This document shows positions 3,248 through 18,464 of a stretch of DNA of 64,000 nucleotides, one piece after another. Under the pieces are notes generated by a model. That model saw only the letters and a list, made by a program, of their open reading frames with translations. It had not been told where the DNA came from and searched no databases. Location of the stretch: positions 96,001 through 160,000 of the forward strand of contig CAVXTM010000009.1 of the NCBI GenBank assembly GCA_963764725.1, in the 5' to 3' direction. Origin of the DNA: an uncultured Gammaproteobacteria bacterium (GTDB lineage: Bacteria; Pseudomonadota; Gammaproteobacteria; JACCXJ01). Every line of letters begins with the position of its first letter. Positions within the stretch are counted from its first letter, which is position 1. Both the position numbers and the translations under genes were made by a program.

Positions 3248-6200
3248 ATGATGAACGATCGCGTATCAGCGTGGCTGAATGAGCTAGGTCTCGGAATATA
3301 CTGTGATTCATTTGAGCAAAATGCTATCGATTGGGAAGTACTTCCCGAGCTGAATGAAGGCGACCTCGAGGCGCTGGGCGTTTTACTGGGACATCGAAAA
3401 AAACTCTTACGCGCTATCGCTCAGCTGTCACAGAGCGCTGAGGTTATGGACAGGGTGTCAATACCCATTTCCGTCGTTCCGGAAAGGCAGCCATTCTATC
3501 CAGAAGGAGATCAAGCAGAACGTCGCCAGCTGACTGTGATGTTTTGTGATCTGGTGGATTCGACACCCCTATCTCGCCACTTGGACCCTGAGGACCTCCA
3601 GGATGTCGTCCGACGTTTTTTAGACGCATGCAGTCAAGCGATCCGTCGGTTCGACGGCTACATCGCAAAATACATGGGTGATGGAATGCTAATCTATTTT
3701 GGGTACCCCCATGCCCACGAAAACGATGCAGAACGAGCGGTACATTCTGGACTGGCTATTCTGGATGTGGCGAAGGCGCTTAATCAAGATAATCCGGATC
3801 AAGGGTTTGGTATAGCTGCAAGAATTGGGATCGCTACTGGCCAAGTCGTGGTCGGCGAATTAATGGGGCAGGAAACCGCCAAGGAAAGGTCAGTTTTTGG
3901 CGAAACCCCTAATCTTGCTGCTCGCCTCCAAGTGCTGGCAAAACCCAATCAGCTGATCATTGACCCTTCGACGAAACGTCTCGCAGGAAATGATTTCGAG
4001 TTCGCAGATCATGGCACCTTTTCTCTTAAAGGGTTCGAAACACCCGTCCAGGCCTGGCGGGTTCTGAGCACCAGGTTGTCAGCCAGCCGGTTTGAAGCCC
4101 ATCGATCCAGTCAATTAGCCAATTTTGTAGGCAGGGAATACGAGATCTCACTCCTGCTTGGTCGTTGGCGCGAAGCCGTCGGCGGAGAAGGACAGGTATT
4201 GCTCCTGCGTGGTGAGGCCGGCATCGGCAAATCGAGAATTACCCAGATTCTGCGCGACCGCATCGCCGACGAACGTCACCAAACTATTCAATACCAGTGT
4301 TCACCTTACCATACCAATACGGCTCTACACCCAGCGATAAATTACCTGTGGCAAGCAGCCGGACTTGCCAGTGAGGACAGTTCCAATACGAAACTGACTA
4401 AGCTGGACGTCATGGCCATCGAAAGCGGAGTTGAAAAGCAGGAAATGGTTTCATTGATGGCGGATCTGCTCTCGATCCGAGAGGATCATCGGTACCCACC
4501 GCTCAATGTGTCATCCGAAAAACGCAAGGAAATGACTCTGGCAGCATTAATGCGCCAACTGCAAAGCCTGGCCGATCGTTTTCCAGTGTTGTTCTTTGTG
4601 GAAGACGCCCACTGGATTGATCCGACAACGCTTGATCTCTTGACGCGAATCATTGACCGCATCCAGCAGATGCGCGTGTTGTTACTGGTAACATTTCGAC
4701 CCGAATTCAACCCCATTTGGCAGGAACGCGGTCACGTGACGTCTCTAACGCTCAGTCGGCTTCCACGTCGGCATTGCACCGAGCTCGTTACTGCGATTAC
4801 AGGGGGTAAAGCGCTTCCGCCCGAGGTGAAACAGACCATTCTCGCCAAGGCCGACGGCGTGCCTCTATATATCGAAGAGTTGACGAGAAATGTTCTTGAA
4901 TCCGGGCTACTGACTGAGGAGGCCTACTCTTATACCTTAAAGGACGCATTAAGAGAATTATCCATTCCGGAAAGTCTGCAAGCTTCGCTGATGGAAAGGG
5001 TAGACCGATTGGGGCCGGTTAAGGAAATTGTTCAAACTGGAGCAGCGATTGGACGTGAATTCACATACGACCTTTTACAGGCAACTGGCGAAGCTACGGA
5101 CAGCCAGTTGAGGAATGCACTCGACCTCTTCGTCGCTTCCGGGCTCATTTTCCAAGAGGGCGAGATTCCCGCTGCGAAATACCTCTTTAAGCACGCTCTC
5201 GTACAAAAAGCTGCCTACAGCACACTACTCAAGAAACCCCGGCAATTGCTACATGCTCGAATTGCTAAGACACTGGAGAGCAGCTTCATCGAGCGTGTAA
5301 AAAGGGAGCCGGAACTCCTGGCTTATCACTATGAACAGGCAGGATTACCGGGCCCGGCGGTTGATTATTGGCATCTTGCGGCTCGTAGCGCCGCGGAACG
5401 TTCGGCTAATATCGAAGCGCTTAATCATTTTAATAGAGCGCTACATCTGCTAAAGGATCTGCCACAAGGTCCAGAGCGTAATACCTTGGAGTTGGAACTC
5501 TTGATAGCACGCGGAGCCCCCTTGCTGTCCGTAAAAGGATATGCATCCGACGAAATGGAACAGAATTATTCAAGAGCGAAGGATTTGTCACAGGAGATCG
5601 GCGATCCCGTGCATCAGTTTCGCGCAATTTGGGGATTATGGGTGTTTCGTCTTGTCAGAGGACAACTCACTGATGCTCGCGGCCTAGCCGAAAGTCTTCT
5701 CGCTTTGGCTAATCGCGAGCAAAGCTCGGATCTACTTGTCGAAGCTCACCGGAATTTGGGTACGACCTATTTCTGGCTTGGCCGGTTTGACGAAGCGAGA
5801 ACCCATCTCCTTACCGCAAAAGCTCTGTACGATCGAAAGCAACACCGGTCGCATGCCTTACTCTACGGCCAGGATCCCGGGATAACCGCGAGGATTTACC
5901 TGGCCAGGACAGTGTGGATATTAGGTGAGGTTGAGCAAGCTGAAACACTGGCGCTGGAGGCCATCGGCATGGCGAGGGAGTTAGATCACCCATTCACGCT
6001 GGCTTTTACCTTAGCCTTTCTTTCCTGGGCCTATTCAACTTTTCGCAACGCGAATAGAACGCTGGAACTCACAGACGAAGCCATTGCCGTTTCAACTCGA
6101 TACTCATTTGAATTGGGTTTGGCGTGGGCAACGGCCTCTCAAGGATGGGCTTTAGCCGAAAATGGGCAAGCGGAAGGTGTAAACAGGTTGATAAGCGGCC

Positions 6201-6643
6201 TTTCCGCTACTCGGGCCATAGGTGCAAGTGTCAACAACACGGCTACATTGGCTTTGCTTGCGAAAATATATTTACAAGAAAAACGCTTTAGCGAAGGCCT
6301 GGCCGCTATTGAGGATGCTCAGAAGATTGCCGTAACGCAGGGAGAACGTTTTTGGCAAGCGGAACTGTTTCGATTGAAAGGCGAACTGCTGCTCGGACAA
6401 TCCGACCAATCAGTCAATGAAGCAGAACAGTGCTTTTGTGAAGCCCTGGAGATTGCACGGAATCAGAATGCGAAAATGCTCGAACTGCGAGCGGCTACCA
6501 GCCTGGCAAGGCTGTGGAAAAACCTGAATAAATTGGATGATGCCAAAAGCACCTTAAGTTTCGTTTACTCTGGTTTCACAGAAGGCTTCGAAAGCCGTGA
6601 CTTGGTTGAGGCCAAAACAGTTCTTGAGCAGCTTATTGAGTGA
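3248..6643 (+). CDS. SAM domain + class III adenylate/guanylate cyclase + AAA ATPase + TPR-like protein
   Basis: SAM (WLNELGL..LGHRKKLL). Cyclase motifs VMFCDLVDST, KYMGDG and GETPNLAARLQ. Walker A GEAGIGKS and Walker B FVEDAHW. Helical repeat C-terminus ending LELRAATSLARL. Confidence 0.92.
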   Translation: MMNDRVSAWLNELGLGIYCDSFEQNAIDWEVLPELNEGDLEALGVLLGHRKKLLRAIAQLSQSAEVMDRVSIPISVVPERQPFYPEGDQAERRQLTVMFCDLVDSTPLSRHLDPEDLQDVVRRFLDACSQAIRRFDGYIAKYMGDGMLIYFGYPHAHENDAERAVHSGLAILDVAKALNQDNPDQGFGIAARIGIATGQVVVGELMGQETAKERSVFGETPNLAARLQVLAKPNQLIIDPSTKRLAGNDFEFADHGTFSLKGFETPVQAWRVLSTRLSASRFEAHRSSQLANFVGREYEISLLLGRWREAVGGEGQVLLLRGEAGIGKSRITQILRDRIADERHQTIQYQCSPYHTNTALHPAINYLWQAAGLASEDSSNTKLTKLDVMAIESGVEKQEMVSLMADLLSIREDHRYPPLNVSSEKRKEMTLAALMRQLQSLADRFPVLFFVEDAHWIDPTTLDLLTRIIDRIQQMRVLLLVTFRPEFNPIWQERGHVTSLTLSRLPRRHCTELVTAITGGKALPPEVKQTILAKADGVPLYIEELTRNVLESGLLTEEAYSYTLKDALRELSIPESLQASLMERVDRLGPVKEIVQTGAAIGREFTYDLLQATGEATDSQLRNALDLFVASGLIFQEGEIPAAKYLFKHALVQKAAYSTLLKKPRQLLHARIAKTLESSFIERVKREPELLAYHYEQAGLPGPAVDYWHLAARSAAERSANIEALNHFNRALHLLKDLPQGPERNTLELELLIARGAPLLSVKGYASDEMEQNYSRAKDLSQEIGDPVHQFRAIWGLWVFRLVRGQLTDARGLAESLLALANREQSSDLLVEAHRNLGTTYFWLGRFDEARTHLLTAKALYDRKQHRSHALLYGQDPGITARIYLARTVWILGEVEQAETLALEAIGMARELDHPFTLAFTLAFLSWAYSTFRNANRTLELTDEAIAVSTRYSFELGLAWATASQGWALAENGQAEGVNRLISGLSATRAIGASVNNTATLALLAKIYLQEKRFSEGLAAIEDAQKIAVTQGERFWQAELFRLKGELLLGQSDQSVNEAEQCFCEALEIARNQNAKMLELRAATSLARLWKNLNKLDDAKSTLSFVYSGFTEGFESRDLVEAKTVLEQLIE

Positions 6644-6668
6644 CAAAGGTATTGATTGTCCATCATAG

Positions 6669-6815
6669 GGTTCAAACCACCGGCTTTCAGCCGGTTAGCT
6701 TTAGCTGCGAGAATGCTGCACAAGGAGGTGCATCATGGACTACGGATATGGCAGTCATACAGTTTTTCAGATTGAGTACCACTTTGTATCACTTTGTATG
6801 GGTGACGAAGTATCT
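6669..6815 (+). pseudogene. tnpA: IS200/IS605 left end and tnpA 5' fragment
   Basis: Subterminal hairpin CCGGCT-TTC-AGCCGG, RBS AAGGAGG, ATG at 6735 giving MDYGYGSHTVFQIEYHFV..WVTKY. A 10-bp tandem duplication CACTTTGTAT (6780-6799) breaks the frame. Confidence 0.8.
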
Positions 6816-6921
6816 GTAGTGCGCAAATATCTTTCGACTTGTGCGGCGACGGCACCAACGATACTCATGGTGCAAACCGCCTAGCACAGGCACTCGCGCT
6901 AGCCGTAGTCGCTGGAAAACT

Positions 6922-6982
6922 TGCTCCGCAAAAAATTCAATACGAGGCGAAATAACGCAAAATTGAACGAAATTGCGGAGCA
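6922..6982. repeat. Imperfect inverted repeat
   Basis: TGCTCCGCAA-N4-TTCAAT (6922-6941) pairs with ATTGAA-N5-TTGCGGAGCA (6962-6982). Confidence 0.55.
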
Positions 6983-7129
6983 GAAAATGACCTATCTTGT
7001 TGATAAATAACGATTGTACCGATGACTTGTCTGTGGCGAGTTACTAATTTTAGGGGAGAGTCCGCACTTGTGATCCGCATTTAATGTTCGGCCCTACATT
7101 GTGCGACTTTTGCGGAGAGCGCCCTGGCA

Positions 7130-7801
7130 CCCCTGCAAGCGGCGGCCTGCACCTACCGGATCGCGTTCGGGCCCCGGGCGGGCCAGAAAGTGCTGACCTT
7201 GCAGACCATCCCGAACCGAGTGGCGCCGCCCACCGAACACTGCTGCGTCAATGAGCAGGGCTTCAGCTTGCATGCTGACGTGCGGCTCGCCATCAACCGG
7301 CGTCATAAGCTCGAACACCTCTGTCGGTACATCACCCGCCCGGCTCTTGCCAACGAGCGCCCAGCGCTCAACCGTGCCGGGCAGGTGGTGCTCACGCTGA
7401 AGACACCTTACCGAGATGGCACCACCCATATCGTCATGGAACCCCTGGAATTCATGCAGCGCCTTGCCGCACTGGTTCCCCGTCCGCGGTTGCACCTCAT
7501 CCGCTTCCATGGCGTGCTCACACCCCATGCCAAGCTCCGGCCCCAGATCATCCCGAATGCGCCGGTCAACGCGACTGACGACCCATCAGGCCACGCCGAG
7601 ACACCTCATTCCTCGGCGCCGGTCCGCCTGAGCTGGGCCGGGCTGCTCAAACGCGTATTCGATATCGACATCGAGCGCTGCCCCAACTGCGGCGGCGCCT
7701 TAACGATTATCGCCGCCATCCTCGACCCCGCCGTGATTGCCAAGATCCTCGCCCACCTCGGCTTGCCTATCCGCGCACCGCCGCGCTCACCGGCACGTTG
7801 A
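7130..7801 (+). pseudogene. IS91/ISCR rolling-circle transposase, C-terminal half only
   Basis: LQAAACTYRIAFGPRAGQKVL..GFSLHA..LCRYITRP..LKTPYRDGTTHIVMEPLEFMQRLAALVPRPR..RFHGVL, followed by a CPNC zinc ribbon. Confidence 0.88.
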
Positions 7802-8021
7802 CCCGATCTGTTCCACGCCGCCTAACCCCGCATCGACACCGCTTCTGCCACAGCGCCGATCTCTCGCTCGGCCTGCGTTCACACACACCGCCCATCAGGC
7901 GGTGACATCCGCCCGCTCAGGCTGATCTACAGCCCCGAAAACGCCATGCGCACACGGTTCTCACCAATAATTCGTGTCATTGACTACCCGCCAAGCTCGG
8001 CGATATAGTCCCACCGCAACA

Positions 8022-8048
8022 AAAAGGTCGTTTCAAGTTCCTATTCGC
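8022..8048 (+). mobile_element. oriIS-like end of the ISCR/IS91 element
   Basis: AAAAAGGTCGTTTCAAGTTCCTATTCGC lies about 220 bp downstream of the transposase and resembles the ISCR oriIS consensus (GTTTGAAnTTCCTAT). Confidence 0.65.
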
Positions 8049-8097
8049 CGTTTGACACGGGAGACGAGAATGATCAGATTGAATCGCGATAGCGCGA

Positions 8098-9526
8098 TGA
8101 TCAGCCACACTCGTCGCATTCTGTCCCACCGAACGGTGGATGAGCAATCGAACGGGCAGGAAGTGAATCATGCGAACATTCGTGCAGAGCTCGAATCATT
8201 CTCACATCACGTCCGCGTCCCACGCACCGAAGTCCTCCATCGATCCTCGCATCGAAACGAGCATTCGATCTTTGCGGGGACAGGGATAGCCGCTTGCGAC
8301 GGCCGACCGCGAATTCTTCGACTCCCGGTTCGGGCACGACTTCGCCAAGGTGCGGATCCACTCGAACCCGGCCGCGGAAGAATCGGCACGCTCCCTTCGC
8401 GCCAAGGCGTTTACGACCGGGCGGACATCTTCTTCGGCTCGGGCGATTCGCGCCCCGGACAGCCGCCGGCAGGAAGTTGCTGGGGCATGAGCTGGCCCAT
8501 GTGATCGAGCAGGAGTCGCTCGACCCCGCAGCCGTCGAGTACGGGTATCGCGGTCGCGGCGAAGTGGGCGTTCCGACCCTGCAGCTCGCGCCCGAGGATT
8601 CTGCAACGGAACCTGCGCCCGCGCTCGACGATGCCGATGCGCCGGATCCCCTTCTCGACGAAGAGGCGATGATGGCCGTGGCCAGGGAGGGTGCGCGACA
8701 ACTCGACGACTATTTGACGACTTACATCCTGGGCTGTAACGCCACCCGGAGGGAGATGACGCTTTCGGAAGCGCTCGCATCCGGAAAGATCCCCGTGTTC
8801 TCCGACGAGTACGACGCGACGATCGCGACGATCCGACAGCAGTCGCTGGCAGCGCTCCGTCAGGCAAAGGGCTTCTTCGAGAACCTGGATGCGAAATCCA
8901 TGAGCCGATGGAGTGCCGCGGCGCTCGAGGCCGCGAATGTCGCGATCGCAACCATCGAGGATGGAGACGACATCGTCTTCGTCGTCGACAGCCGCACCGG
9001 GGAGGGTCAGTCCGTGCTGTCCCGTATCGACCATTTCCGCGAGCAGCTCGCGATCCGCGAGGGGGGATTTCAAGACGAGGAAGGGCGGGCGAAACGCGTC
9101 TCGGCTGGGCTGTCCTCGCATGAGGGGCAAATGGATCTGGACCAAGCCGTTACGGCATCCCGCCCGCAACATCGCTCGGTCTCCATTCTCGACATCGGTG
9201 CGCTGTACGACAATCGCGCGCTCCAAAACTTCGTGGGTCCGATCCAGAATCCTCCCGGAACGCTTCACATCCAGGTGGATACTGCCGCGGCAGTGGATAT
9301 TCGTGCGCTTTTCATCCACGAAGTCGGCGGTCATGCCTTGAGCTTCGAGACACCGGCGGCGAGGGCGAGGCGTCTGCACGGCGATCCGGTCACCGAGAAG
9401 CAAAAAGAATCCAGCCGAGAGCTGGAGGAGGGTTTGGTGGACAACATGGTCAACAAGGTCGCGTTCTTTTCGCTGATACGCGATGACCTGCCGCGTTCTC
9501 TCATTCGACGGCTCGGTAGCGAATGA
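8098..9526 (+). pseudogene. DUF4157 (eCIS core domain) protein with C-terminal putative Zn-metalloprotease, disrupted
   Basis: Across three frames: GQG*PLATADREFFDSRFGHDFAKVRIH..ARSLRAKAFTTG / ADIFFGSG / FAPRTAAGRKLLGHELAHVIEQ. The C-terminus carries FIHEVGGH. The start is uncertain. Confidence 0.78.
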
Positions 9527-10776: not shown

Positions 10777-11295
10777 ATGAAACGCGTCTATTGCTCGGAG
10801 GATCGACTACTCGTCGGCTTCCTCAAAGGTGTCCTCGATGGCCACCGCATCGACTGCCTAGTCAAGAATGAATATCTCATCGGCGGCATCGGGGAGCTGC
10901 CGCCGGGCGCCTGTTGGCCGGAGCTTTGGGTGATAGAAGAGCGTGATCTGCCGCAAGCCCGCACTCTCATCGATTCAGTGCTGAAAGGCGGATCCGGCAC
11001 GGAGCCATGGCGCTGTCCGGCGTGCGGCGAATGGATCGAACCACAGTTCGCGGAATGCTGGCAATGCGCTCAGTGTCAGGATGAGCTACCCTGCCACCTT
11101 CAAAACGCTGCATCGGCTTCGGCGCCCGGAATCCGCGCCGTTCCATATCCACCACCGCCGGGCGTTTCAATGACCAGGACATCGCCGGGCCGCATCATGG
11201 TTGCCGCGCAGCCGCCCAAGGATTCCACCGTACCGTCGGCCCGCTCCACCGAGTTGCGCCCGATCTTACCCGGCTCGCCGCCCGCAAGACCGTAG
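10777..11295 (+). CDS. DUF2007-like protein with RanBP2-type zinc finger
   Basis: [24 protein letters not shown], then [20 protein letters not shown]. The tail overlaps the convergent gene. Confidence 0.75.
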
Positions 11296-14200
11296 GGCGG
11301 TATGCGCCGATGGCTCGATAGGATCGCCGCATGCGTCGTTTCCAGGAACCGCACCCGGCGCACCGCGCCGTCGCCGCCGCGGTATCGGCCCCGGCCGCCG
11401 CTGCCGTGGCGTATGTGAAAGCTCTCGATCAACACCGGGAAGCGCCACTCCAACACCTCGGGATCGGTCAAACGCGTGTTGGTCATGTGTGTCTGCACGC
11501 AGTCGGCGCCGTCGAAGCCCTCCCCGGCGCCCGAGCCACCGGCGATGGTCTCATAGTATTGATATTCCTCATTGCCGAAGGTGAGGTTGTTCATCGTGCC
11601 TTGCGCGGCGGCCATTACACCGAGCGCCCCATAAAGCGCGTCGGTGACATACTGCGAGGTCTCGACATTGCCCGCCACCACTGCCGCCGGGTAACGCGGG
11701 TTGAGCATCGAGCCCGCCGGGATAATGACCGTCAGGGGCTTGAGGCACCCGGCGTTGAGCGGGATGTCATCGTTGACAAGGGTCCGGAAAACGTAAATCA
11801 CCGCGGCCAGGGTCACGGCCGCTGGTGCGTTGAAGTTGTTCGCCTGCTGCGGCGAGGTGCCGCTAAAGTCGATCACCGCCGCGCGTGTGGTCCTGTCTAT
11901 GGTGATCTTGACGTTGATCGCCGCGCCATGGTCCATCTCGTAAGTGAACTCACCGTCACGAAGCACCTCGATCGCTCGCCGCACCGACTCCTCGGCGTTA
12001 TCTTGCACGTGTCGCATATAGGCCCGCACGGTTTTCAGACCAAAGTAAGCCACCATGCGGCGGAGCTCCTGCACGCCCTTTTCGTTGGCGGCGATCATGG
12101 CGCGCAGGTCGGCCAGATTTTGGCTCGGGTTGCGTGCGGGATAGAGGCTCGAGGTCAGGATCTTCAGTAACTCGTCCTCGCGCAAGCGGCCTTGCTCGAC
12201 GAGGAGGAAGTTATCGATCAATATACCCTCTTCCTCGATATGACGGCTCGCCGGAGGCATAGAGCCCGGCGTCATCCCGCCGATGTCGGCGTGATGCCCG
12301 CGCGAGCCGAGGTAGAACAAAATGCGCTCGCCCCCCTCCTCGAATACCGGTGTGATGACGGTCATGTCCGGGAGGTGCGTGCCACCGCGGTAAGGGGCGT
12401 TCAGCAGGTAGACGTCACCCGGATGCATCGTGTCGGCGTTCGCGCGCCGCACCGCTTGCACGCTCTCGCTCATCGACCCGAGGTGCACGGGCAGGTGAGG
12501 CGCATTGGCGATCAACTGCCCCTCGGCATCGAACAGTGCGCAAGAGAAGTCCAGGCGCTCCTTGATGTTGACCGAGTAAGCGGTGTTGGCGAGCGCTGCG
12601 CCCATCCGCTCGGCGATCGACATGAACAGGTTACTGAATATTTCCAGCATCACCGGATTGGCCTGGGCGCCAAGCGCGGTGCTTTTCGGGCGGGGGATCT
12701 TGCGCGTGAGTACAAGACAGTTCTGCGGCGTGACGGCGGCCTGCCAGCCCGGCTCGATCACGGTGGTGGCGTTGGCTTCGGCGATGATCGCGGGTCCCGC
12801 GATCCGATCGCTGGGCCGCAGCGTATCCCGATCATAGATAGGTGTGGGGTGCTGACAGCCGCCGCTCCACATGGTTACTATCTCGGCGGGTGCCGGAGAG
12901 GTGGCTGCTGCTACCTTCGCGGCAGGAGACGGCGGCACCGGGCGATCTTCGGAGTCTTCTCCCAAGCCCGTCACTTCGACGGAAACCACTTCAACGACGA
13001 GCGGGCGATCGGCCATCAAAAAACCGTAGCGTTGGCGGTATACCTGTTCGAACTGCTTGACCATGTGATTCGGCGCGGCAAAATTGACCGTCAACGCAGA
13101 GTCCGTTCCCTCGTAACGCAGATGCACGCGCTTAGCTACACGCCACCGCGGCCTCGCTTGACCGCTCAATTTCTTACGGCCCTCCACTGCTAGCTCCTCG
13201 AACACGGTACGCAGGCCGGGCATGACCGCCGGATCGAGCTTTGCTTCGATGGCGCGCTCGCGCATGACGCTCACCTCGGCGAGCCCCATGCCATAGGCGG
13301 AAAGCACACCGGCGTGAGCGTGAATGAAGATTTTATCCATCGCCAAAGCGTCGGCGACCAAACAGGCATGTTGACCGGCCGCCCCGCCGAAGCAGCAGAG
13401 ACAATAGGCGGTGACATCGTAACCGCGTTGCACCGAAATCTTCTTGATGGCATTGGCCATATTTCCTATCGCGACCTGGACGAAGCCCTCGGCCACTTCC
13501 AGCGGCGATCGGCTATCGCCGGTGGCGGCCGTGATCTCCGCCGCGAGATCCTCGAACTTTCCTCGCACGATCTCGGCATCGAGCGGCTGATCGCCGCACG
13601 CGCCAAATACGCGCGGAAAGAACCTCGGTTGCAGCTTGCCGAGCATCACGTTGCAGTCGGTGATGGTGAGCGGCCCGTCGGCTCGATAACAGGCCGGCCC
13701 GGGGTAAGCCCCAGCCGAGTCCGGGCCTACCCGATAGCGCATGCCATCGAAGTGAAGAATCGAGCCGCCGCCCGCCGCTACCGTATGGATGAACAGAATG
13801 GGGGCGCGGAACCGTACCCCGGCGACTTGCGTTTCGAAGGCGCGTTCGAGCTCGCCCGCGTAATGGGAGACGTCGGTGGAGGTGCCGCCCATATCGAAGC
13901 CGATCACCTTGTCGAATCCTGCGGCGAGCGCCGTCCTCACCGCCCCGACTACACCGCCTGCCGGGCCGGACAGGAGGCTGTCTTTGCCGCGGAACCGATA
14001 GGCCTCGGCCAGTCCGCCATTGGATTGCATGAACAGTAAACGCGAGCCATGAAGTTCCCGTTCCATGTTCTCGACGTAGCGGCAGAGGATCGGGGAGAGA
14101 TAGGCGTCCGCGACTGTGGTGTCGCCCCGGCTCACGAATTTCATCAGCGGGCTGACTTCATGCGATGCCGAGATCTGCGTGAAGCCGATCGCACGGGCTG

Positions 14201-14759
14201 CCTGCGCCACCTGCCGCTCGTGGGCCGAATAACGATAGCCGTGCATGAAAACGATCGCGACCGCGCGCAAGCCGCGGGCGAATGCGGCCCGCAACTCATT
14301 TTCAGCCCCTTCAAGGTCGAGCGGAACGAGCACCTCGCCGCGGGCGCCGACGCGCTCCCTTACCTCGATCACGTCTGTATAGAGCATCTCGGGCATGATG
14401 ATGTGCCGCGCAAAGATGTGGGGTCGGTTCTGGTAGCCGATGCGCAACGCATCGCGGAAACCCCTCGTCACCACCAACAGCGTCGGTTCGCCCTTGCGCT
14501 CGAGAAGGGCATTGGTCGCGACAGTCGTGCCCATCTTCACCGACTCGATCCACTCGCTCGGGATCGGTTCATCGGGACCGAGGCCTAAAAAATAACGAAT
14601 GCCGGCGAGCGCCGCGTCGGAATACCGGCCCGGATTTTCGGAGAGCAGCTTGTGGGTCAAAAGCCGCCCGTTCGGACTGCGGGCGACGATATCGGTAAAG
14701 GTACCGCCGCGGTCGATCCAGAACTGCCAGCGGGGTTTCGATTCGGACGGCTTCTCCAT
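11100..14759 (-). CDS. oplA: 5-oxoprolinase (ATP-hydrolysing), fused hydantoinase A/B
   Basis: [54 protein letters not shown] and TPGGGGYG motifs. Confidence 0.93.
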
Positions 14760-14899
14760 CGCCGGGAAGATAGCACAAATGGCCGGTCGCGCCTCCCGCC
14801 AAGGTGCGAATCCCAAGCGTGCGCGAGGGAATCAACGTGTACTACGTGGCGGACACCCGAACGATGCGATACGACCGGCTGGCGTCGGTGGATGCACAT

Positions 14900-15360
14900 A
14901 CTGGTGGGATCTCTCGATCCTGCGTTATGTCCATTGGGCCAAGGGGCGCATGATCTCATCGCCGCGCTGGACGTGGGTCATGGTTGAAGCCTCCTTGCAA
15001 ACGGTGATGCGCCGTGGTCTCGACCGTTATCGTGCGTCCCATCGGCTGACCCCCCACCAGTGCCAGGTCTGCCATCATATCCTCGCCTGCCGCACCGAAG
15101 CCCTCGGCGGGCTCCGGCTGGATTGCGACCACCACGGGCAGCCGGCCTCAGTACTACGCCTGCCGCGACGCCACTGCCCACCTCAGGCCACCCACCCACC
15201 GCCTCCTACCCGCCAGTGACTTCCACAGGCTCTCTCCTAAGGAATACAATCGCCTTTAATATAAGGACAACTGATCCAAACCGACAAGCCCGGTGTCGTC
15301 GCGGTTTAGTCCAGCAGACATTTATCCGTCATGCTGGACAGCGCACGACGGATAAATGCA
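14900..15360 (+). mobile_element. Remnant IS91-type element: tail of an upstream gene (possibly a tyrosine recombinase), transposase N-terminus, and hairpin end
   Basis: ORF fragment from 14980 (MVEASLQTVMRRGLDRYRASHRLTPHQ..ILACRTEALGG..CD) matches the IS91 Zn-binding N-terminus. Downstream GCGGTTTAGTCCAGCA is followed by a 12-bp hairpin CATTTATCCGTC/GACGGATAAATG (15319-15358). Confidence 0.62.
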
Positions 15361-15395
15361 TATTTGTTAGCCGTCATAGCTGGAACGTTTCGGCC

Positions 15396-16235
15396 TTGAG
15401 CTCCCTCACTTACTGTTATGTTGACGAGAGCATTCACGATTCCGTGGGCGTCGTTGTTACCGCTTTCGTTTTTAGCAATTCCGCTTTCGCAATTGCTGTA
15501 ACTGAGGCCTTGCGGGACGCAGGCATCAACCCTCCGCACGACGAGTACAAAAGTAGTGCGCGGATGGACACCGACGAACGAATGCGAAGCGCGCGAGACA
15601 ATTTGATGTTTTTGGCCGGTTCCGAGTCAAAGATTGCTGTGTTTATCGGCCCCTTTTATCGACCACGATTGGGACGGCAATCACTGCAAGCACTGCAATC
15701 TGTGTTGGTGCGGAATGCGATCCCTCCCTCATCGTTGCGTGTTCATTTCGATCAGGGGATTTTTCCCTCGGCTTCAGAAGCTTCGCGCCTTCACAGGCTT
15801 TTTCATTCTCTGGCGGGTGCTGAGATCATGCCCGAGGAGGATTCACGCTCCTGTGTAGGAATCCAAGTCGCAGATGCAGTAGCTCATAGCTTCGGACAGA
15901 TCATCAAGGCCGCACTAACAGGTAATGAAAAAATGATCGATATAGGGGGACCAAATACTGGGTATTCCGGAGGGACTGAAGCGCCACTAGGCTGGTCACT
16001 ATTGATGAATCTGCGTTACGCGTTGCTAACCCGCCCCATCATTCATAACGGCGAACCGTATTTGGCAGAATGCGATCCAGTCGTACTAGACCCTGCTAAC
16101 GATGACCCAGTAGATTTTGGTCAGCATCCGACTCTATTGGGATGGGGAGTCCAGGTAGCTCCTGAAGCGGATGCATCGCTACGACAGGCGGTTGAACAAA
16201 AACTGGGGCGTATTTGGCTAGGGTGCATTCATTGA
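15396..16235 (+). CDS. DUF3800-like (RNase H-like fold) protein in a gene-cassette-like unit
   Basis: YVDES near the N-terminus, HFDQG, and IQVADAVAH motif. Probable TTG start at 15396. Confidence 0.7.
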   Translation: MSSLTYCYVDESIHDSVGVVVTAFVFSNSAFAIAVTEALRDAGINPPHDEYKSSARMDTDERMRSARDNLMFLAGSESKIAVFIGPFYRPRLGRQSLQALQSVLVRNAIPPSSLRVHFDQGIFPSASEASRLHRLFHSLAGAEIMPEEDSRSCVGIQVADAVAHSFGQIIKAALTGNEKMIDIGGPNTGYSGGTEAPLGWSLLMNLRYALLTRPIIHNGEPYLAECDPVVLDPANDDPVDFGQHPTLLGWGVQVAPEADASLRQAVEQKLGRIWLGCIH

Positions 16236-16270
16236 CGGCTAAGCACGTCATCGAGTTGACGGCCTACCCG
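16233..16270 (+). repeat. Partial attC-like site (inverse core) after the DUF3800 gene
   Basis: TGACGGCTAAG (16233-16243) is the reverse complement at 10/11 of GTTAGCCGTCA (15366-15376) upstream of the gene. Confidence 0.55.
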
Positions 16271-16297
16271 CAAACGCGCGTAAGGCAGAAAGCTCGC

Positions 16298-16327
16298 GTA
16301 GGGAGGAACGCCGAAGGTGGTTCCGCC
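16298..16327 (+). repeat. GTAG-type REP palindrome
   Basis: GTAG-GGAGGAACGCC-GAA-GGTGGTTCCGCC, immediately upstream of a RAYT gene. Confidence 0.7.
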
Positions 16328-16356
16328 GAATGAATAAGAGGTGATAATGTTTACCG

Positions 16357-16720
16357 ATGCCGGACTACCGCCGTTACCGTGTGCCGGGAGGTACGTACTT
16401 TTTCACCATCAATCTCTTAGAACGCCGCGCCGACTTGTTGGTGCGGCATATCGAGGCGTTGCGGGAAGCAGTGAAGCGTACGCGAGCCGAGCGATCATTC
16501 CATATCGACGCCTGGGTCGTGCTACCCGATCACATGCATTGGCGTGATTACCCTACCACCCGGCGACGATGGCTTTTCCAATCGCATTAGAGCAATCAAG
16601 ATTCGCTTTGTACAGGCGCTGGCGCCGACGGAGCGGCCTTCATCGGTACGAATGGCCAAGGGTGAACGTGGCCTGGCAACGGCGTTTTTGGGAGCATGCT
16701 ATTCGGGACGAGGGAAGATT
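16357..16720 (+). pseudogene. REP-associated tyrosine transposase (RAYT), frameshifted and truncated
   Basis: MPDYRR..GGTYFFT..AWVVLPDHMH / TLPPGDDGFSNR..IK / WQRRFWEHAIRDE lie in three frames. Confidence 0.88.
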
Positions 16721-17122
16721 ATGCGCGACATACGGTTACGTCTCAACATGGCTCGTCTTGAGTAATGCCCAATATGCTGGGCCTGACGTGCTCCGGTACC
16801 TGGCAGGCCGCCTGTCGGAGGCAATGGACGTGCAGGAGACGGTCAAGGCCTGATGTGGAATGCTTAGAAGCGGAGCACGTGCAGGTCGGTTGCTTCAATG
16901 GCCCGACCTTCGACCTTTCATCGTTGGTGAAGGCAGGTGCCATCGCTCGCGCTTGGGGTGGCGAGGGTGCGTTGGACGTTGCCGAGGGGAACGTGTTCCA
17001 GACGTAATGACGCTGGTAACGTGTCATGTCGGCGAAGAGCAACACCCCTGCGGGGTTCCGCGTGTCCTGGGCGGACGGCGGGGCGCTCGGCAGGTCCCCA
17101 AGCGCCGGCCAAAGACCTTGCT

Positions 17123-17707
17123 TCAAAGCCTGAGCAACCAGTAGGTTCGATCTGCAAATACGGTGTCATGCACGGGTAGCTCTTCGAAGCCGAGCTTGGC
17201 GAAAAGGGCTCGGATCGCTGTCGCGTTGGTAGCGGTGCGCGCGATTTGGTAGATGAATCCTTGACTCCGAAGCACAGGGATCAGCGCGGCGGCGAGTCCA
17301 TAGGCGATCTGTCGCCTCCGGGCTCCGGGGTCCACGCAGACCGTGTCCGCGTAGAATAGGCGCTTGCCCTCCTCGAAGAGATAATCGAGCGCCGGAGTGC
17401 CGGAGATCGCGCCGAGCGTGAGGTCCCGAGGGTCGTCGCTCTCTCGAAGGATCTCGTAGCCAAGAGTATAACCGACGATTGCGCCCGAGCCCTTAGTCTT
17501 AGCAATAAAGGCCAGGGCGTTACGCCGCATCAGATCGACGCCGAGGCCGAAGTGAAGGCGCGGCCTTTCGAGATCGTCACTCCAAGGGGGCTCGCGAAAA
17601 GACCGATAGGCTAGGGATGCTATCTGCTCGATCAGGATCCCGGAGGCATCTGCCCGCAAGTCCTCTACGCAGATCCGCTCGACCGCAATGTCGTGGCCAT
17701 CAGTCAT
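17123..17707 (-). CDS. GNAT family N-acetyltransferase
   Basis: VCVDPGARRRQIA (motif A) and TNATAIRALFAKLGF (motif B). Probable start MTDGHD at 17707. Confidence 0.75.
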   Translation of the reverse strand: MTDGHDIAVERICVEDLRADASGILIEQIASLAYRSFREPPWSDDLERPRLHFGLGVDLMRRNALAFIAKTKGSGAIVGYTLGYEILRESDDPRDLTLGAISGTPALDYLFEEGKRLFYADTVCVDPGARRRQIAYGLAAALIPVLRSQGFIYQIARTATNATAIRALFAKLGFEELPVHDTVFADRTYWLLRL

Positions 17708-17762
17708 TGGCTTAGGCGCCGCGGGGGTCGAGCGGCTGACAATGCAAAGGAATGATACCGCT

Positions 17763-18464
17763 TTATAGGGGATAATCGGCGTAGATGAGACTGCGCCACA
17801 TATGAGCGGCAGGGCTAGTATCGTAGCCGAGCCCTTCTTTCGGCTGTTTGAAATGCCGGCCAATGATGTCTGTAAATGGCTCGATTGACACCTTCGCAGT
17901 AGGATCAAAGCTGTAATCGTCGTGCAGTGTAATCAGGCGCGCTTCCGTATACCAAGGGTGATTCCGCGCATAGGTGTATGCCGCCTCGATGTAGGGCGGA
18001 GGGGCGTAGTTTTCCCCGAAGATACGGCGGTACATCTCGGGGTACTCGTATCCAACCGAAGGGTCCGGGTAGAAGCGGAGCGCTTGATGGTAGCGGATCG
18101 CCCAACTCACCTTCTCCGAGACGTAGGGCTCGACAAGTTGTGCGCTCCACCATCCGTGATTGACCATCATGAGGTTCATCCCGATGTCGTGCAGCAAACA
18201 CGCTAAAATCGTTTCTTCGGGGCATCCCTGCTTCATGGATCGGGTCGCGCTCTGCAGACAATGGTTGACTGTTCCCGAGGCAAACCGGAACGCGAAGAAG
18301 TCGGCCAAGCTTGGCGTTGCTGGCATGGGTTCGAGCGGTGTGAGCGGCCGCGACGGACACGAGGGAACAAGCGACTTTGCGACAAATAGACAGCCCGCTC
18401 CCTGCCGGTACGTATTCGGCAAGGGAGGTACCGCGTCCGCTGTGTGTTGGTTCCCGGTCGTCAT
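17763..18464 (-). CDS. HD-domain protein (PhnZ-like metal-dependent hydrolase/oxygenase)
   Basis: NHCLQSATR..ACLLHDIG..NHGWW..RYH..HDD pattern of metal ligands. Confidence 0.75.
   Translation of the reverse strand: MTTGNQHTADAVPPLPNTYRQGAGCLFVAKSLVPSCPSRPLTPLEPMPATPSLADFFAFRFASGTVNHCLQSATRSMKQGCPEETILACLLHDIGMNLMMVNHGWWSAQLVEPYVSEKVSWAIRYHQALRFYPDPSVGYEYPEMYRRIFGENYAPPPYIEAAYTYARNHPWYTEARLITLHDDYSFDPTAKVSIEPFTDIIGRHFKQPKEGLGYDTSPAAHMWRSLIYADYPL

Follow-up and report, generated by a model that had tools for sequence, protein, structure and literature searches.

Remnant of an IS91-type element beside an apparent integron gene cassette, and the position of its relatives at the heads of cassette arrays

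The window, that is, the whole stretch of 64,000 nucleotides analysed here, comes from the genome of an uncultured Gammaproteobacteria bacterium (contig CAVXTM010000009.1, positions 96,001 to 160,000). In it the remains of an insertion sequence (IS) of the IS91 type lead, at the junction GTTAGCCGTCA, into a gene for a DUF3800-like protein (Table 1). To judge by its homologues, this DUF3800 unit is a genuine integron gene cassette that has decayed in the window, and the element belongs to a family whose relatives stand at the heads of cassette arrays. The best explanation, and in our opinion probably the correct one, is that the window preserves a fossil array in which the element inserted at an integron-site GTT ahead of pre-existing cassettes, its own machinery being the favoured agent.

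Little of the element itself is left. The left end is gone, as is most of the recombinase gene; the tail of this gene is recognizable in two frames, SILRYVHW (14914-14937) and GQGAHDLIAALDVGHG (14937-14984), by tblastn with the recombinase of an intact relative (L009). The transposase stump is 68% identical over 68 residues to the L009 transposase (14938-15141) and matches the Pfam family Zn_Tnp_IS91 (E 3.7e-8, profile positions 2-60 of 90), and an internal deletion joins it to the right terminal region. Three further copies of this right end, with 81-87% identity, are found in the same genome (G000, whose contigs are given as C with a number): C13:50851-51057, C13:44497-44664 and C18:10190-10275. 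All four copies end in ...TAT(T/C)(T/C)GTT and diverge after it, the flanks being AGCC, AGGG, GGGC and AGAC. An earlier reading of the window from its letters alone (the sequence-only reading) had taken the hairpin for the end of an IS91-type element and had asked whether intact copies carry an upstream tyrosine recombinase and are followed, exactly after GTT, by different attC-ended genes. They do and they are: the four ends in this genome stop at GTT, and the GTT of the relatives described below precedes a variety of such genes.

The arms of the hairpin, CATTTATCCGTC (15319-15330) and GACGGATAAATG (15347-15358), are complementary at 12 of 12 positions and can be extended to 16 nt with 94% pairing. 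Beyond the spacer, the junction includes TTAGCCGTCA, the opening bases of the cassette and its R' half-site; at the far end of the gene lies TGACGGCTAAG, the TGA of which is the stop codon of the open reading frame (ORF). TTAGCCGTCA and TGACGGCTAA form an inverted repeat with 10 of 10 complementary positions. The sequence-only reading had described the hairpin, the junction and the 10/11 complement over the stop codon correctly, and its "almost no leader" is a fair approximation, a TTG 27 nt past the GTT being the preferred start codon. The bare count of the 11-mer GTTAGCCGTCA is unremarkable, because 20 of 100 shuffled sequences yield two or more matches anywhere; with at most one mismatch it has two sites only on both strands of the window, for an expectation of 0.79. 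Its placement, on opposite strands and at both ends of one gene (27 nt ahead of the start codon and over the stop codon), is not a matter of chance, and the identical 11-mer and its complement also border the homologous gene in an unrelated genome (L088). Within the terminal region of the IS there are weak sigma-70-like matches directed at the cassette (15222-15250 and 15335-15364, the latter stopping two bases short of GTT); three such matches occur in 1.3 kb where 0.8 would be expected, all with a weak consensus only, and they might drive the promoterless cassette.

The gene is intact, since its homologues are of the same length and cover the whole protein: there are 215 of them, the best with 82% identity, with a coverage of 90-100%, and the ten best matches are 263-299 residues long, most of them 279-281; among the homologues as a whole, most measure 276-283. 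The Pfam family PF12686 (DUF3800) scores 19 bits with the protein, below the gathering cut-off of 21, which leaves it outside formal membership; some of the homologues carry a precomputed PF12686 assignment. An AlphaFold model (predicted local distance difference test, pLDDT, 82.6) has RNase HII and HIII as its best fold matches in the PDB (E 2e-4, template modelling score 0.31-0.44), a weak resemblance to the RNase H-like fold. Neither a PADLOC (defence-system) family nor an NCBIfam family matches the protein. Scanning the genome collection with this single sequence gave no close relatives, and an alignment of homologues was used instead. The resulting 62 homologue loci (12 from the genome collection and 50 from metagenomes) are spread over very diverse phyla, from Bacteroidota to Chloroflexota.

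It is these homologues that identify the unit as a cassette. Sites of the attC type were detected with a home-made covariance model trained on 36 sites, of which 25 lie 3' of IS copies in other genomes, 8 are in integrons of the host genome and 3 are at DUF3800 loci. Of the 62 homologue loci, 23 have a same-strand attC no more than about 100 nt from the gene ends, and 20 of these are outside the training set (L119 and L121 resemble copies of L094). In a Dehalococcoidales metagenome-assembled genome (MAG; L088) the gene is preceded by the identical GTTAGCCGTCA and ends with TGACGGCTAAC and a full attC: the TGA is followed directly by CGGCTAAC and then by a textbook attC that ends in GTTAGCC, the same heptamer that opens the homologous cassettes in L109 and L108. 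The succession of inverse core and full attC is found in L109 as well, and L089, L094 and L109 each have a core of their own matched by its inverse core, with attC. TAG is followed by CGGCTAAC in L104 and L109, and TGA by TGGCTAAC in L103 and by CGGCCAAC in L087 and L105, so that (C/T)GGC(T/C)AAC is kept directly 3' of the stop codon in L103, L104, L087 and L105. Since homologues have the same borders together with attC, the inverted repeat of the window would consist of the R' half-site and the R'' inverse core of this cassette family. GTTAGCC at 15366-15372 agrees with the core site G^TTRRRY except for one RRR departure (C in the third place), and GGCTAAG is complementary to the start of the cassette at 6 of 7 positions; the homologues have GGCTAAC. 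The sequence-only reading had spoken of an integrated integron cassette, and its GTT core and inverse core have turned out to be the conserved borders of a cassette family that does occur in bona fide arrays; the complementary flanks it expected of close homologues are seen in L088, L089, L094 and L109.

The window itself has no complete attC. Even with filters off and E<=10 the covariance model, a search that the sequence-only reading had proposed, finds nothing at 16230-16340, and at E<=1 it finds nothing in the whole window. The best match in the window (14856-14930; 7.2 bits, E 2.2) was taken as chance because it lies partly within the flank that is conserved among relatives. Rfam gives only a chance-level ALIL match on 14000-18000 (E 0.51) and no match to an attC-type family. 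We had also considered an attC split by the insertion of the transposase gene that follows, with its right half further on, and rejected it, as a complementary right half is found nowhere in the window. Homologous cassettes in L104, L108 and L140 have decayed like that of the window. Finally, a whole-genome tblastn search with IntI gives no match in the window, as the sequence-only reading had stated, and the true integrons of this genome are on C15 and C13.

Could the inverted repeat nevertheless be accidental and the gene an ordinary chromosomal one beside IS debris? Inverted repeats of ten bases are no rarity (2.2 kb contain 34 pairs), which, like the shuffles and the missing attC mentioned above, would fit such a view. 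Against it stand the same borders with full attC around homologues in unrelated genomes, the low GC of the region, and the fact that none of the 20 relatives searched (8 of them unpublished) was found to have the gene. We regard an accident of this kind as extremely improbable.

Comparison with genomes of the same genus gives the unit its context. On the left, homology stops at 14806-14888; on the right, it begins again at about 17097-17109, and within this segment the GC content drops from about 0.63 to 0.49-0.55. The comparison includes the unpublished genomes G001, G005, G007 and G008, with which the published G006 and G003 agree. In G006 homology ends at ..TACGACCGGCT (window 14881), and what comes next at the same locus is an attC (32 bits, E 3.3e-5, outside the training set) and a different cassette. 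Because homology breaks at this point and G006 has an attC and a cassette at the same locus, we read the segment as the remnant of a decayed cassette array without an integrase of its own, apparently at a hotspot that is variable within the genus. It contains the wreck of the IS91 element, the DUF3800 cassette with intact gene and lost attC, and a pseudogene of a RAYT (transposase associated with repetitive extragenic palindromes, REP).

Table 1. Positions of the features discussed (window coordinates unless a contig of the host genome is named).
Feature	Position	Strand	Basis or remark
Hydantoinase/oxoprolinase gene, left flank	11100-14816	-	Pfam
Variable segment, apparently a fossil CALIN-like array (cluster of attC sites lacking an integron integrase) without integrase	14882..17100	+	Comparison with same-genus genomes
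Recombinase tail, last ~25-30 codons, frameshifted	14914..14987	+	tblastn with L009 recombinase
Y2 transposase, N-terminal ~70 codons, zinc domain only	14938..15190	+	Degenerate past 15141
Non-coding right terminal region, oriIS-type by analogy	15177..15368	+	~190 nt; three further genome copies
AAC box GCGGTTTAGTCCAGC	15301..15315	+	GTCCAAC of relatives is GTCCAGC here
Subterminal hairpin of the IS end	15319..15358	+	12/12 perfect arms; covariation across 37 ends
7-nt spacer between hairpin and GTT	15359..15365	+	CATATTT in the window; CTTAGAT in most relatives
Junction GTTAGCCGTCA	15366..15376	+	GTT is both IS91-type target triplet and integron core
Cassette ORF, 279 aa, TTG start	15396..16235	+	DUF3800-like, predicted RNase H-like fold (weak resemblance)
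Inverse-core remnant	16233..16243	+	R'' GGCTAAG at 16237-16243, AAC changed to AAG; overlaps stop codon
Sequence where the remaining attC would be expected	16244..16289	+	46 nt, unassigned
REP-like repeat and frameshifted RAYT gene	16290..16850 (repeat 16291-16333, 43 nt)	+	NCBIfam NF047646
GNAT acetyltransferase gene, right flank	17123-17908	-	Pfam
Second-family IS copies	G000:C15:168858-171357; C7:~102563-105042; C9:~5986-9491; C10:~130611-133135, ~136665-139184		

The anatomy of the element has to be learned from its relatives. The transposase of the C13 copy, used as query, found 319 of these (54-81% identity) and provided the 78 related loci considered here, most of which are from Gammaproteobacteria. 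Intact elements measure 2.39-2.55 kb and have a Xer-like recombinase gene upstream of the gene for the Y2 transposase. The latter scores 415 bits with NF033538 in the case of L077 (cut-off 125), and Y2_Tnp is matched at E 2.1e-56 in intact relatives. These relatives accordingly combine the Y2 HUH domain with the N-terminal zinc domain of the IS91 family; the window keeps the zinc domain only. Their recombinase is closer to the integron integrases and XerA (169-176 bits) than to XerC and XerD (134-143). Its best family is the XerA/integron-integrase-like one, with 176 bits where the cut-off is 220, and with the integron-integrase model TIGR02249 it reaches 169 bits in two pieces, below the cut-off of 265, and is therefore not an integron integrase.

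The left end of the intact elements is GTTGAACTAAACCGCTTCGCGG, with the layout GTTG-AACTAAA-CCGCTTCGCGG, and the right end is GGCTTAGTCCAAC-AGA-hairpin-CTTAGAT-GTT. The AAC box of the right end is complementary to the left end GTTGAACTAAACCGC at 11-15 of 15 positions. Fifty-four right ends read ..GC-N6-GTT; among 50 distinct flanks, 43 have A and 6 have G as the base next to GTT. Across 37 ends the 15 pairs of the hairpin are 93.9% paired, with compensatory changes in 8 of them; none of 500 shuffles reaches this degree of pairing, and slid controls give 16-43%. These values show that the structure of the end hairpin is constrained. The right end of the IS does not qualify as an attC: the covariance model with filters off does not match it, and it has a conserved sequence, no bulged bases and an asymmetric 3/7 spacer. 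In the Marinobacter chromosome (L078, 1211-6023) two complete copies in tandem have one GTT in common, consistent with a GTT(A/G) target that is not duplicated. This tandem pair lies about 30 kb downstream of the intI of that genome, past an attI-like flank without integrase.

These features can be compared with the rules of IS91 as given in PMC13181058. There the target tetranucleotide lies beside oriIS, downstream of tnpA, and is not duplicated; terIS has a GTTC-type cleavage site and one subterminal palindrome, and there are palindromes at oriIS (PMC13181058). The anatomy of the present elements fits these rules, their ends being assigned by analogy.

Where the relatives sit is the more telling point. 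On C15 the host genome has a true integron, whose integrase of 340 aa scores 496 bits with TIGR02249 (the cut-off of 265 is also exceeded at L077). Beside it lies the attI, ...cattacatG^TTGGGC, and the cassettes start with GTTRRRY and end with a complementary RYYYAAC at the stop codon. In the C13 integron (L006 = G000:C13:40001-58000), where a deleted intI stands before at least 12 kb of array, rich in attC sites and on the opposite strand, the IS copy begins exactly at the GTT of attI, ...cattacatG^TTGAACTAAACC; in the IS-free C15 integron the first cassette occupies this same GTT. The C13 intI (L006 12849-13703; G000:C13:52849-53700) has an internal deletion, with 284 aa in place of 340, and is 78% identical to that of C15. 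The attI-sited IS copy (L006 11223-12569, minus strand) has itself suffered a deletion, which fused recombinase and transposase into one ORF of 448 aa, to which the recombinase contributes its N-terminal SAM-like domain and the transposase half of its zinc domain (the second) and its Y2 domain.

Among the 78 loci the model finds 66 attC matches (E<=0.05), all on the strand of the element, 64 of them downstream and 2 upstream, in about 98 kb of downstream and about 55 kb of upstream sequence; 25 of the 66 are training sites, which leaves 39 downstream and 2 upstream as independent matches. A downstream attC is present in 28 of the 39 loci that have at least 700 nt of downstream sequence. At 21 loci a textbook attC further downstream opens with the exact reverse complement of the 7-mer that adjoins the IS end, and therefore the unit 3' of the IS is a cassette. 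Of the 23 loci whose upstream flank measures 1200 nt or more, 9 have a true, divergently oriented intI no further than 700 nt from the left end, and a tenth retains a fragment. The 33 left junctions include a single attC and a single case of another IS copy. The left flanks share one pattern, in which a short palindrome, variable in sequence, is followed by (T)CTAAT, 4-5 nt and GTT, and the same pattern recurs in bona fide attI sites beside intI, in the L080 genome and in the host genome. The flank pattern and the position at the head of the array together indicate that the family occupies attI in cassette orientation. At L072 the first cassette past the IS has an attC (6575-6646) that closes with GTTGAAC, the first seven bases of the left end of the element; this hints at another copy, or at the junction of a past excision.

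We would propose, then, that insertion of this IS subgroup is site-specific and takes place immediately 5' of the GTT in integron recombination sites, mostly at attI for the first family and at attC for a sister family, and that the target sites share the layout of hairpin, short spacer and GTT with the right end of the element itself. The Y2 transposase would be the main agent, recognizing a GTT(A/G) target beside the oriIS-type end as in IS91, perhaps aided by the recombinase of the element. IS end and cassette would meet at GTT because the subgroup inserts 5' of that triplet, and since insertion takes place ahead of the integron GTT, the cassette was most likely there before the element arrived. 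The anatomy, the identity of the cassette, the place of the relatives at array heads and the constraint on the hairpin are shown by the data above; the order of events and the enzyme responsible are what we infer here.

Several points weigh against this interpretation. The E-values of the attC model are rough, and 25 of its 36 training sites come from IS loci. The cassette in the window has no detectable attC and an inverse core with AAG rather than AAC, so that its status as a cassette rests on the homologues. No attC match is found in 11 of the 39 loci with enough flank. If the element simply landed in attI, an intI would be expected beside it; yet 10 of 14 relatives with a mapped left end and a downstream attC have none within about 2.3 kb upstream, and no intI remnants were found upstream of the IS copies that lack intI, except for one fragment in L011. 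For 3 of 5 genomes with IS-headed arrays lacking an adjacent intI, the gene lies elsewhere in the genome. Lastly, the insertion point in attI is the crossover point of IntI, which makes IntI or the recombinase of the element a possible inserting enzyme.

Some of these points favour the more ambitious part of the sequence-only reading, in which the right end of the IS is a recombination site that receives attC cassettes, through IntI in trans or the element's own recombinase. The DUF3800 cassette would have been captured in this way, and a transposed element could seed a new array. Indeed, arrays occur only downstream of the element and on its strand, the window array has no intI, the recombinase leans towards integron integrases and XerA, and the right end is broadly laid out like an attC, to the point that a screen for RYYYAAC...GTTRRRY hairpins picked up one of its copies (C13b). 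The IS-headed arrays without adjacent intI also speak for this model. The notion of the IS end as the capturing site fares less well. In the IS-free C15 integron a cassette takes precisely the attI GTT that is filled by the IS in C13. IS copies without intI still have attI-like left flanks, so that their arrays could have arisen at that attI, and an intI does stand beside the element in 9 of 23 loci. The IS end is conserved and unbulged, with its 3/7 spacer, and is passed over by the attC model even without filters, and the recombinase falls below the integron-integrase cut-off. To this must be added that the second family, described next, splits attC sites. Capture of the cassette by the IS end is, in our estimation, unlikely.

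The host genome has a second IS91 family with a recombinase, about 35% identical to the first, in at least five copies (Table 1). Its right end consists of an AAC box, a 14-bp hairpin, TTACTG and GTT. This family splits attC at the GTT complementary to R'', in an orientation opposite to that of the cassettes: on C15 the attC so interrupted is that of the fourth cassette, immediately past R'' (GCCCAAC), and attC-like hairpins lie to the left of the other copies. To our knowledge, IntI does not cut at the GTT complementary to R''. It is for this reason, and because the junctions obey the IS91 rules, that we favour the machinery of the element over a host IntI.

This preference bears on an alternative that differs from ours by the enzyme only, the element again arriving after the cassette. 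The excised single-stranded circle could fold like an attC, with the AAC box paired to the left end GTTGAAC... and the hairpin beside it, and be integrated at attI by IntI or by the recombinase of the element. Such mimicry of a cassette would account for the complementarity between left end and AAC box, for tandem copies with one GTT in common, like neighbouring cassettes, and for the strong preference for the first position at attI, a hallmark of attI x attC insertion, with so few left junctions at attC. It would also draw on the single-stranded circles of IS91, of which one strand only is active for insertion (PMC13181058). However, the sister family inserts inverted inside attC, at a point not known as a crossover of IntI; box and left end covary weakly, the left end being nearly invariant and the box variable; and the attC model does not score the IS end. 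Such an entry is a minority possibility, somewhat doubtful on balance. Much the same standing may be given to the suggestion that recombinase-bearing IS91 elements are parasites or partners of integrons, a single-stranded circle from rolling-circle excision, its joined ends folded like an attC, being integrated at attI by a tyrosine recombinase, and the right end of the element, there or at a later site of transposition, then admitting cassettes, so founding arrays away from intI. If true, this would explain both the IS-headed arrays without integrase and fossils like that of the window.

A special tie between the DUF3800 cassette and the IS was considered and set aside: among the other homologue loci only 1 of 62 (L089) has an IS91 element with recombinase upstream, and the adjacency is therefore best seen as a by-product of position in the array. 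The L089 element (a Syntrophorhabdus MAG, 128-2150) is a distant one, with 40% identity, and ends in TTATAGAGTT immediately before another DUF3800 cassette; the habit therefore reaches beyond the Gammaproteobacteria.

Integron cassettes, integrase-less arrays and IS91 are all textbook subjects. The unit in the window resembles the cassettes of integrons and CALIN in being a promoterless single ORF with a G^TT start and an inverse core over its stop codon, with homologues in bona fide arrays and with a true chromosomal integron of the same cassette grammar in the host genome. It differs in that its attC is reduced to the mutated R'', and in being a single cassette without a nearby intI or attI. 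With IS91, IS801 and IS1294 the elements share the Y2 HUH transposase, GTT(A/G) at the end that follows tnpA, a left end with a GTTG cleavage-type site and a single palindrome, the lack of duplication and the subterminal hairpin; unlike these, they target integron sites, mostly attI, and not any GTTC/CTTG, and they carry an IntI-related recombinase. ISfinder recognizes one IS91 subgroup with an upstream integrase (tyrosine recombinase), for whose role the literature searched gave no explanation. IS1111-attC elements and group IIC-attC introns use a DDE-type IS110/IS1111 transposase and a reverse transcriptase, respectively, and target attC; the present family differs by its enzymes and by its preference for attI, in cassette orientation. 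As mobile elements that specifically invade integron sites they are nonetheless comparable; PMC9229058 mentions IS1111 elements and group IIC introns as attC invaders and calls ISShvi3 IS91-like. On IS91 elements with a recombinase that are specific for integron sites, one sentence in PMC9229058 is all that we found in a search that left subscription journals, TnPedia/ISfinder and supplements outside its scope.

The right end of the IS is like an attC site in having an AAC box, a hairpin, a spacer and GTT, with a box that pairs with the first bases of the element, and unlike one in its conserved sequence, its 3/7 spacer, its lack of extrahelical bases and its invisibility to the attC model. 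ISCR1 lies beyond the 3' conserved segment; its neighbouring genes are not known as attC cassettes, nor is it known to carry a recombinase. The junction described here differs from those of ISCR1 in complex class 1 integrons by falling exactly at the G^TT core. In PMC8876359, ISCR1 is an IS91-like rolling-circle element in integrons, with varied genes abutting the end downstream of its transposase.

What appears to be new, as far as we know, is the preference of the family for attI, with its counts, and the covarying hairpin at its end. The 78 loci, drawn from many Gammaproteobacteria, show elements at array heads with an end exactly at the integron crossover triplet, and a sister family that splits attC. 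This links rolling-circle transposition, with its single-stranded DNA stage, to integron recombination, which uses folded single-stranded sites. It also raises the questions of which enzyme inserts the element at attI, whether the IS end can receive cassettes and whether insertion at attI uncouples an array from the integron promoter. For annotation, a Xer-like recombinase beside attC is easily misread as a novel integron integrase. The window contributes one decayed example and one more cassette family; the interest lies in the element family.

Two minor features remain. The C18 copy of the right end (L007 = G000:C18:6001-16000, 4190-4275, minus strand) is a solitary remnant of 87 nt with hairpin and GTT, and adjoins the upstream side of an ORF of 1257 aa that has a weak FG-GAP-like match only. 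In the window, the 46 nt found where the rest of the attC would be expected are followed by a REP-like repeat and a broken RAYT gene, which NF047646 matches in two frames (16357-16587, profile 1-61, E 2.9e-20; 16544-16762, profile 62-103); Pfam gives no match to the gene pieces. Copies of the repeat are found on C15, C10, C5 (two, inverted) and C1, and elsewhere in the genome it precedes RAYT genes. Repeat and gene together may have replaced the missing part of the attC. A RAYT paralogue on C15, also broken (L008 = G000:C15:160001-180000, 11349-12613), lies in the integron array between two attC-model matches of 18.3 and 15.6 bits, and RAYT genes may therefore travel as cassettes.

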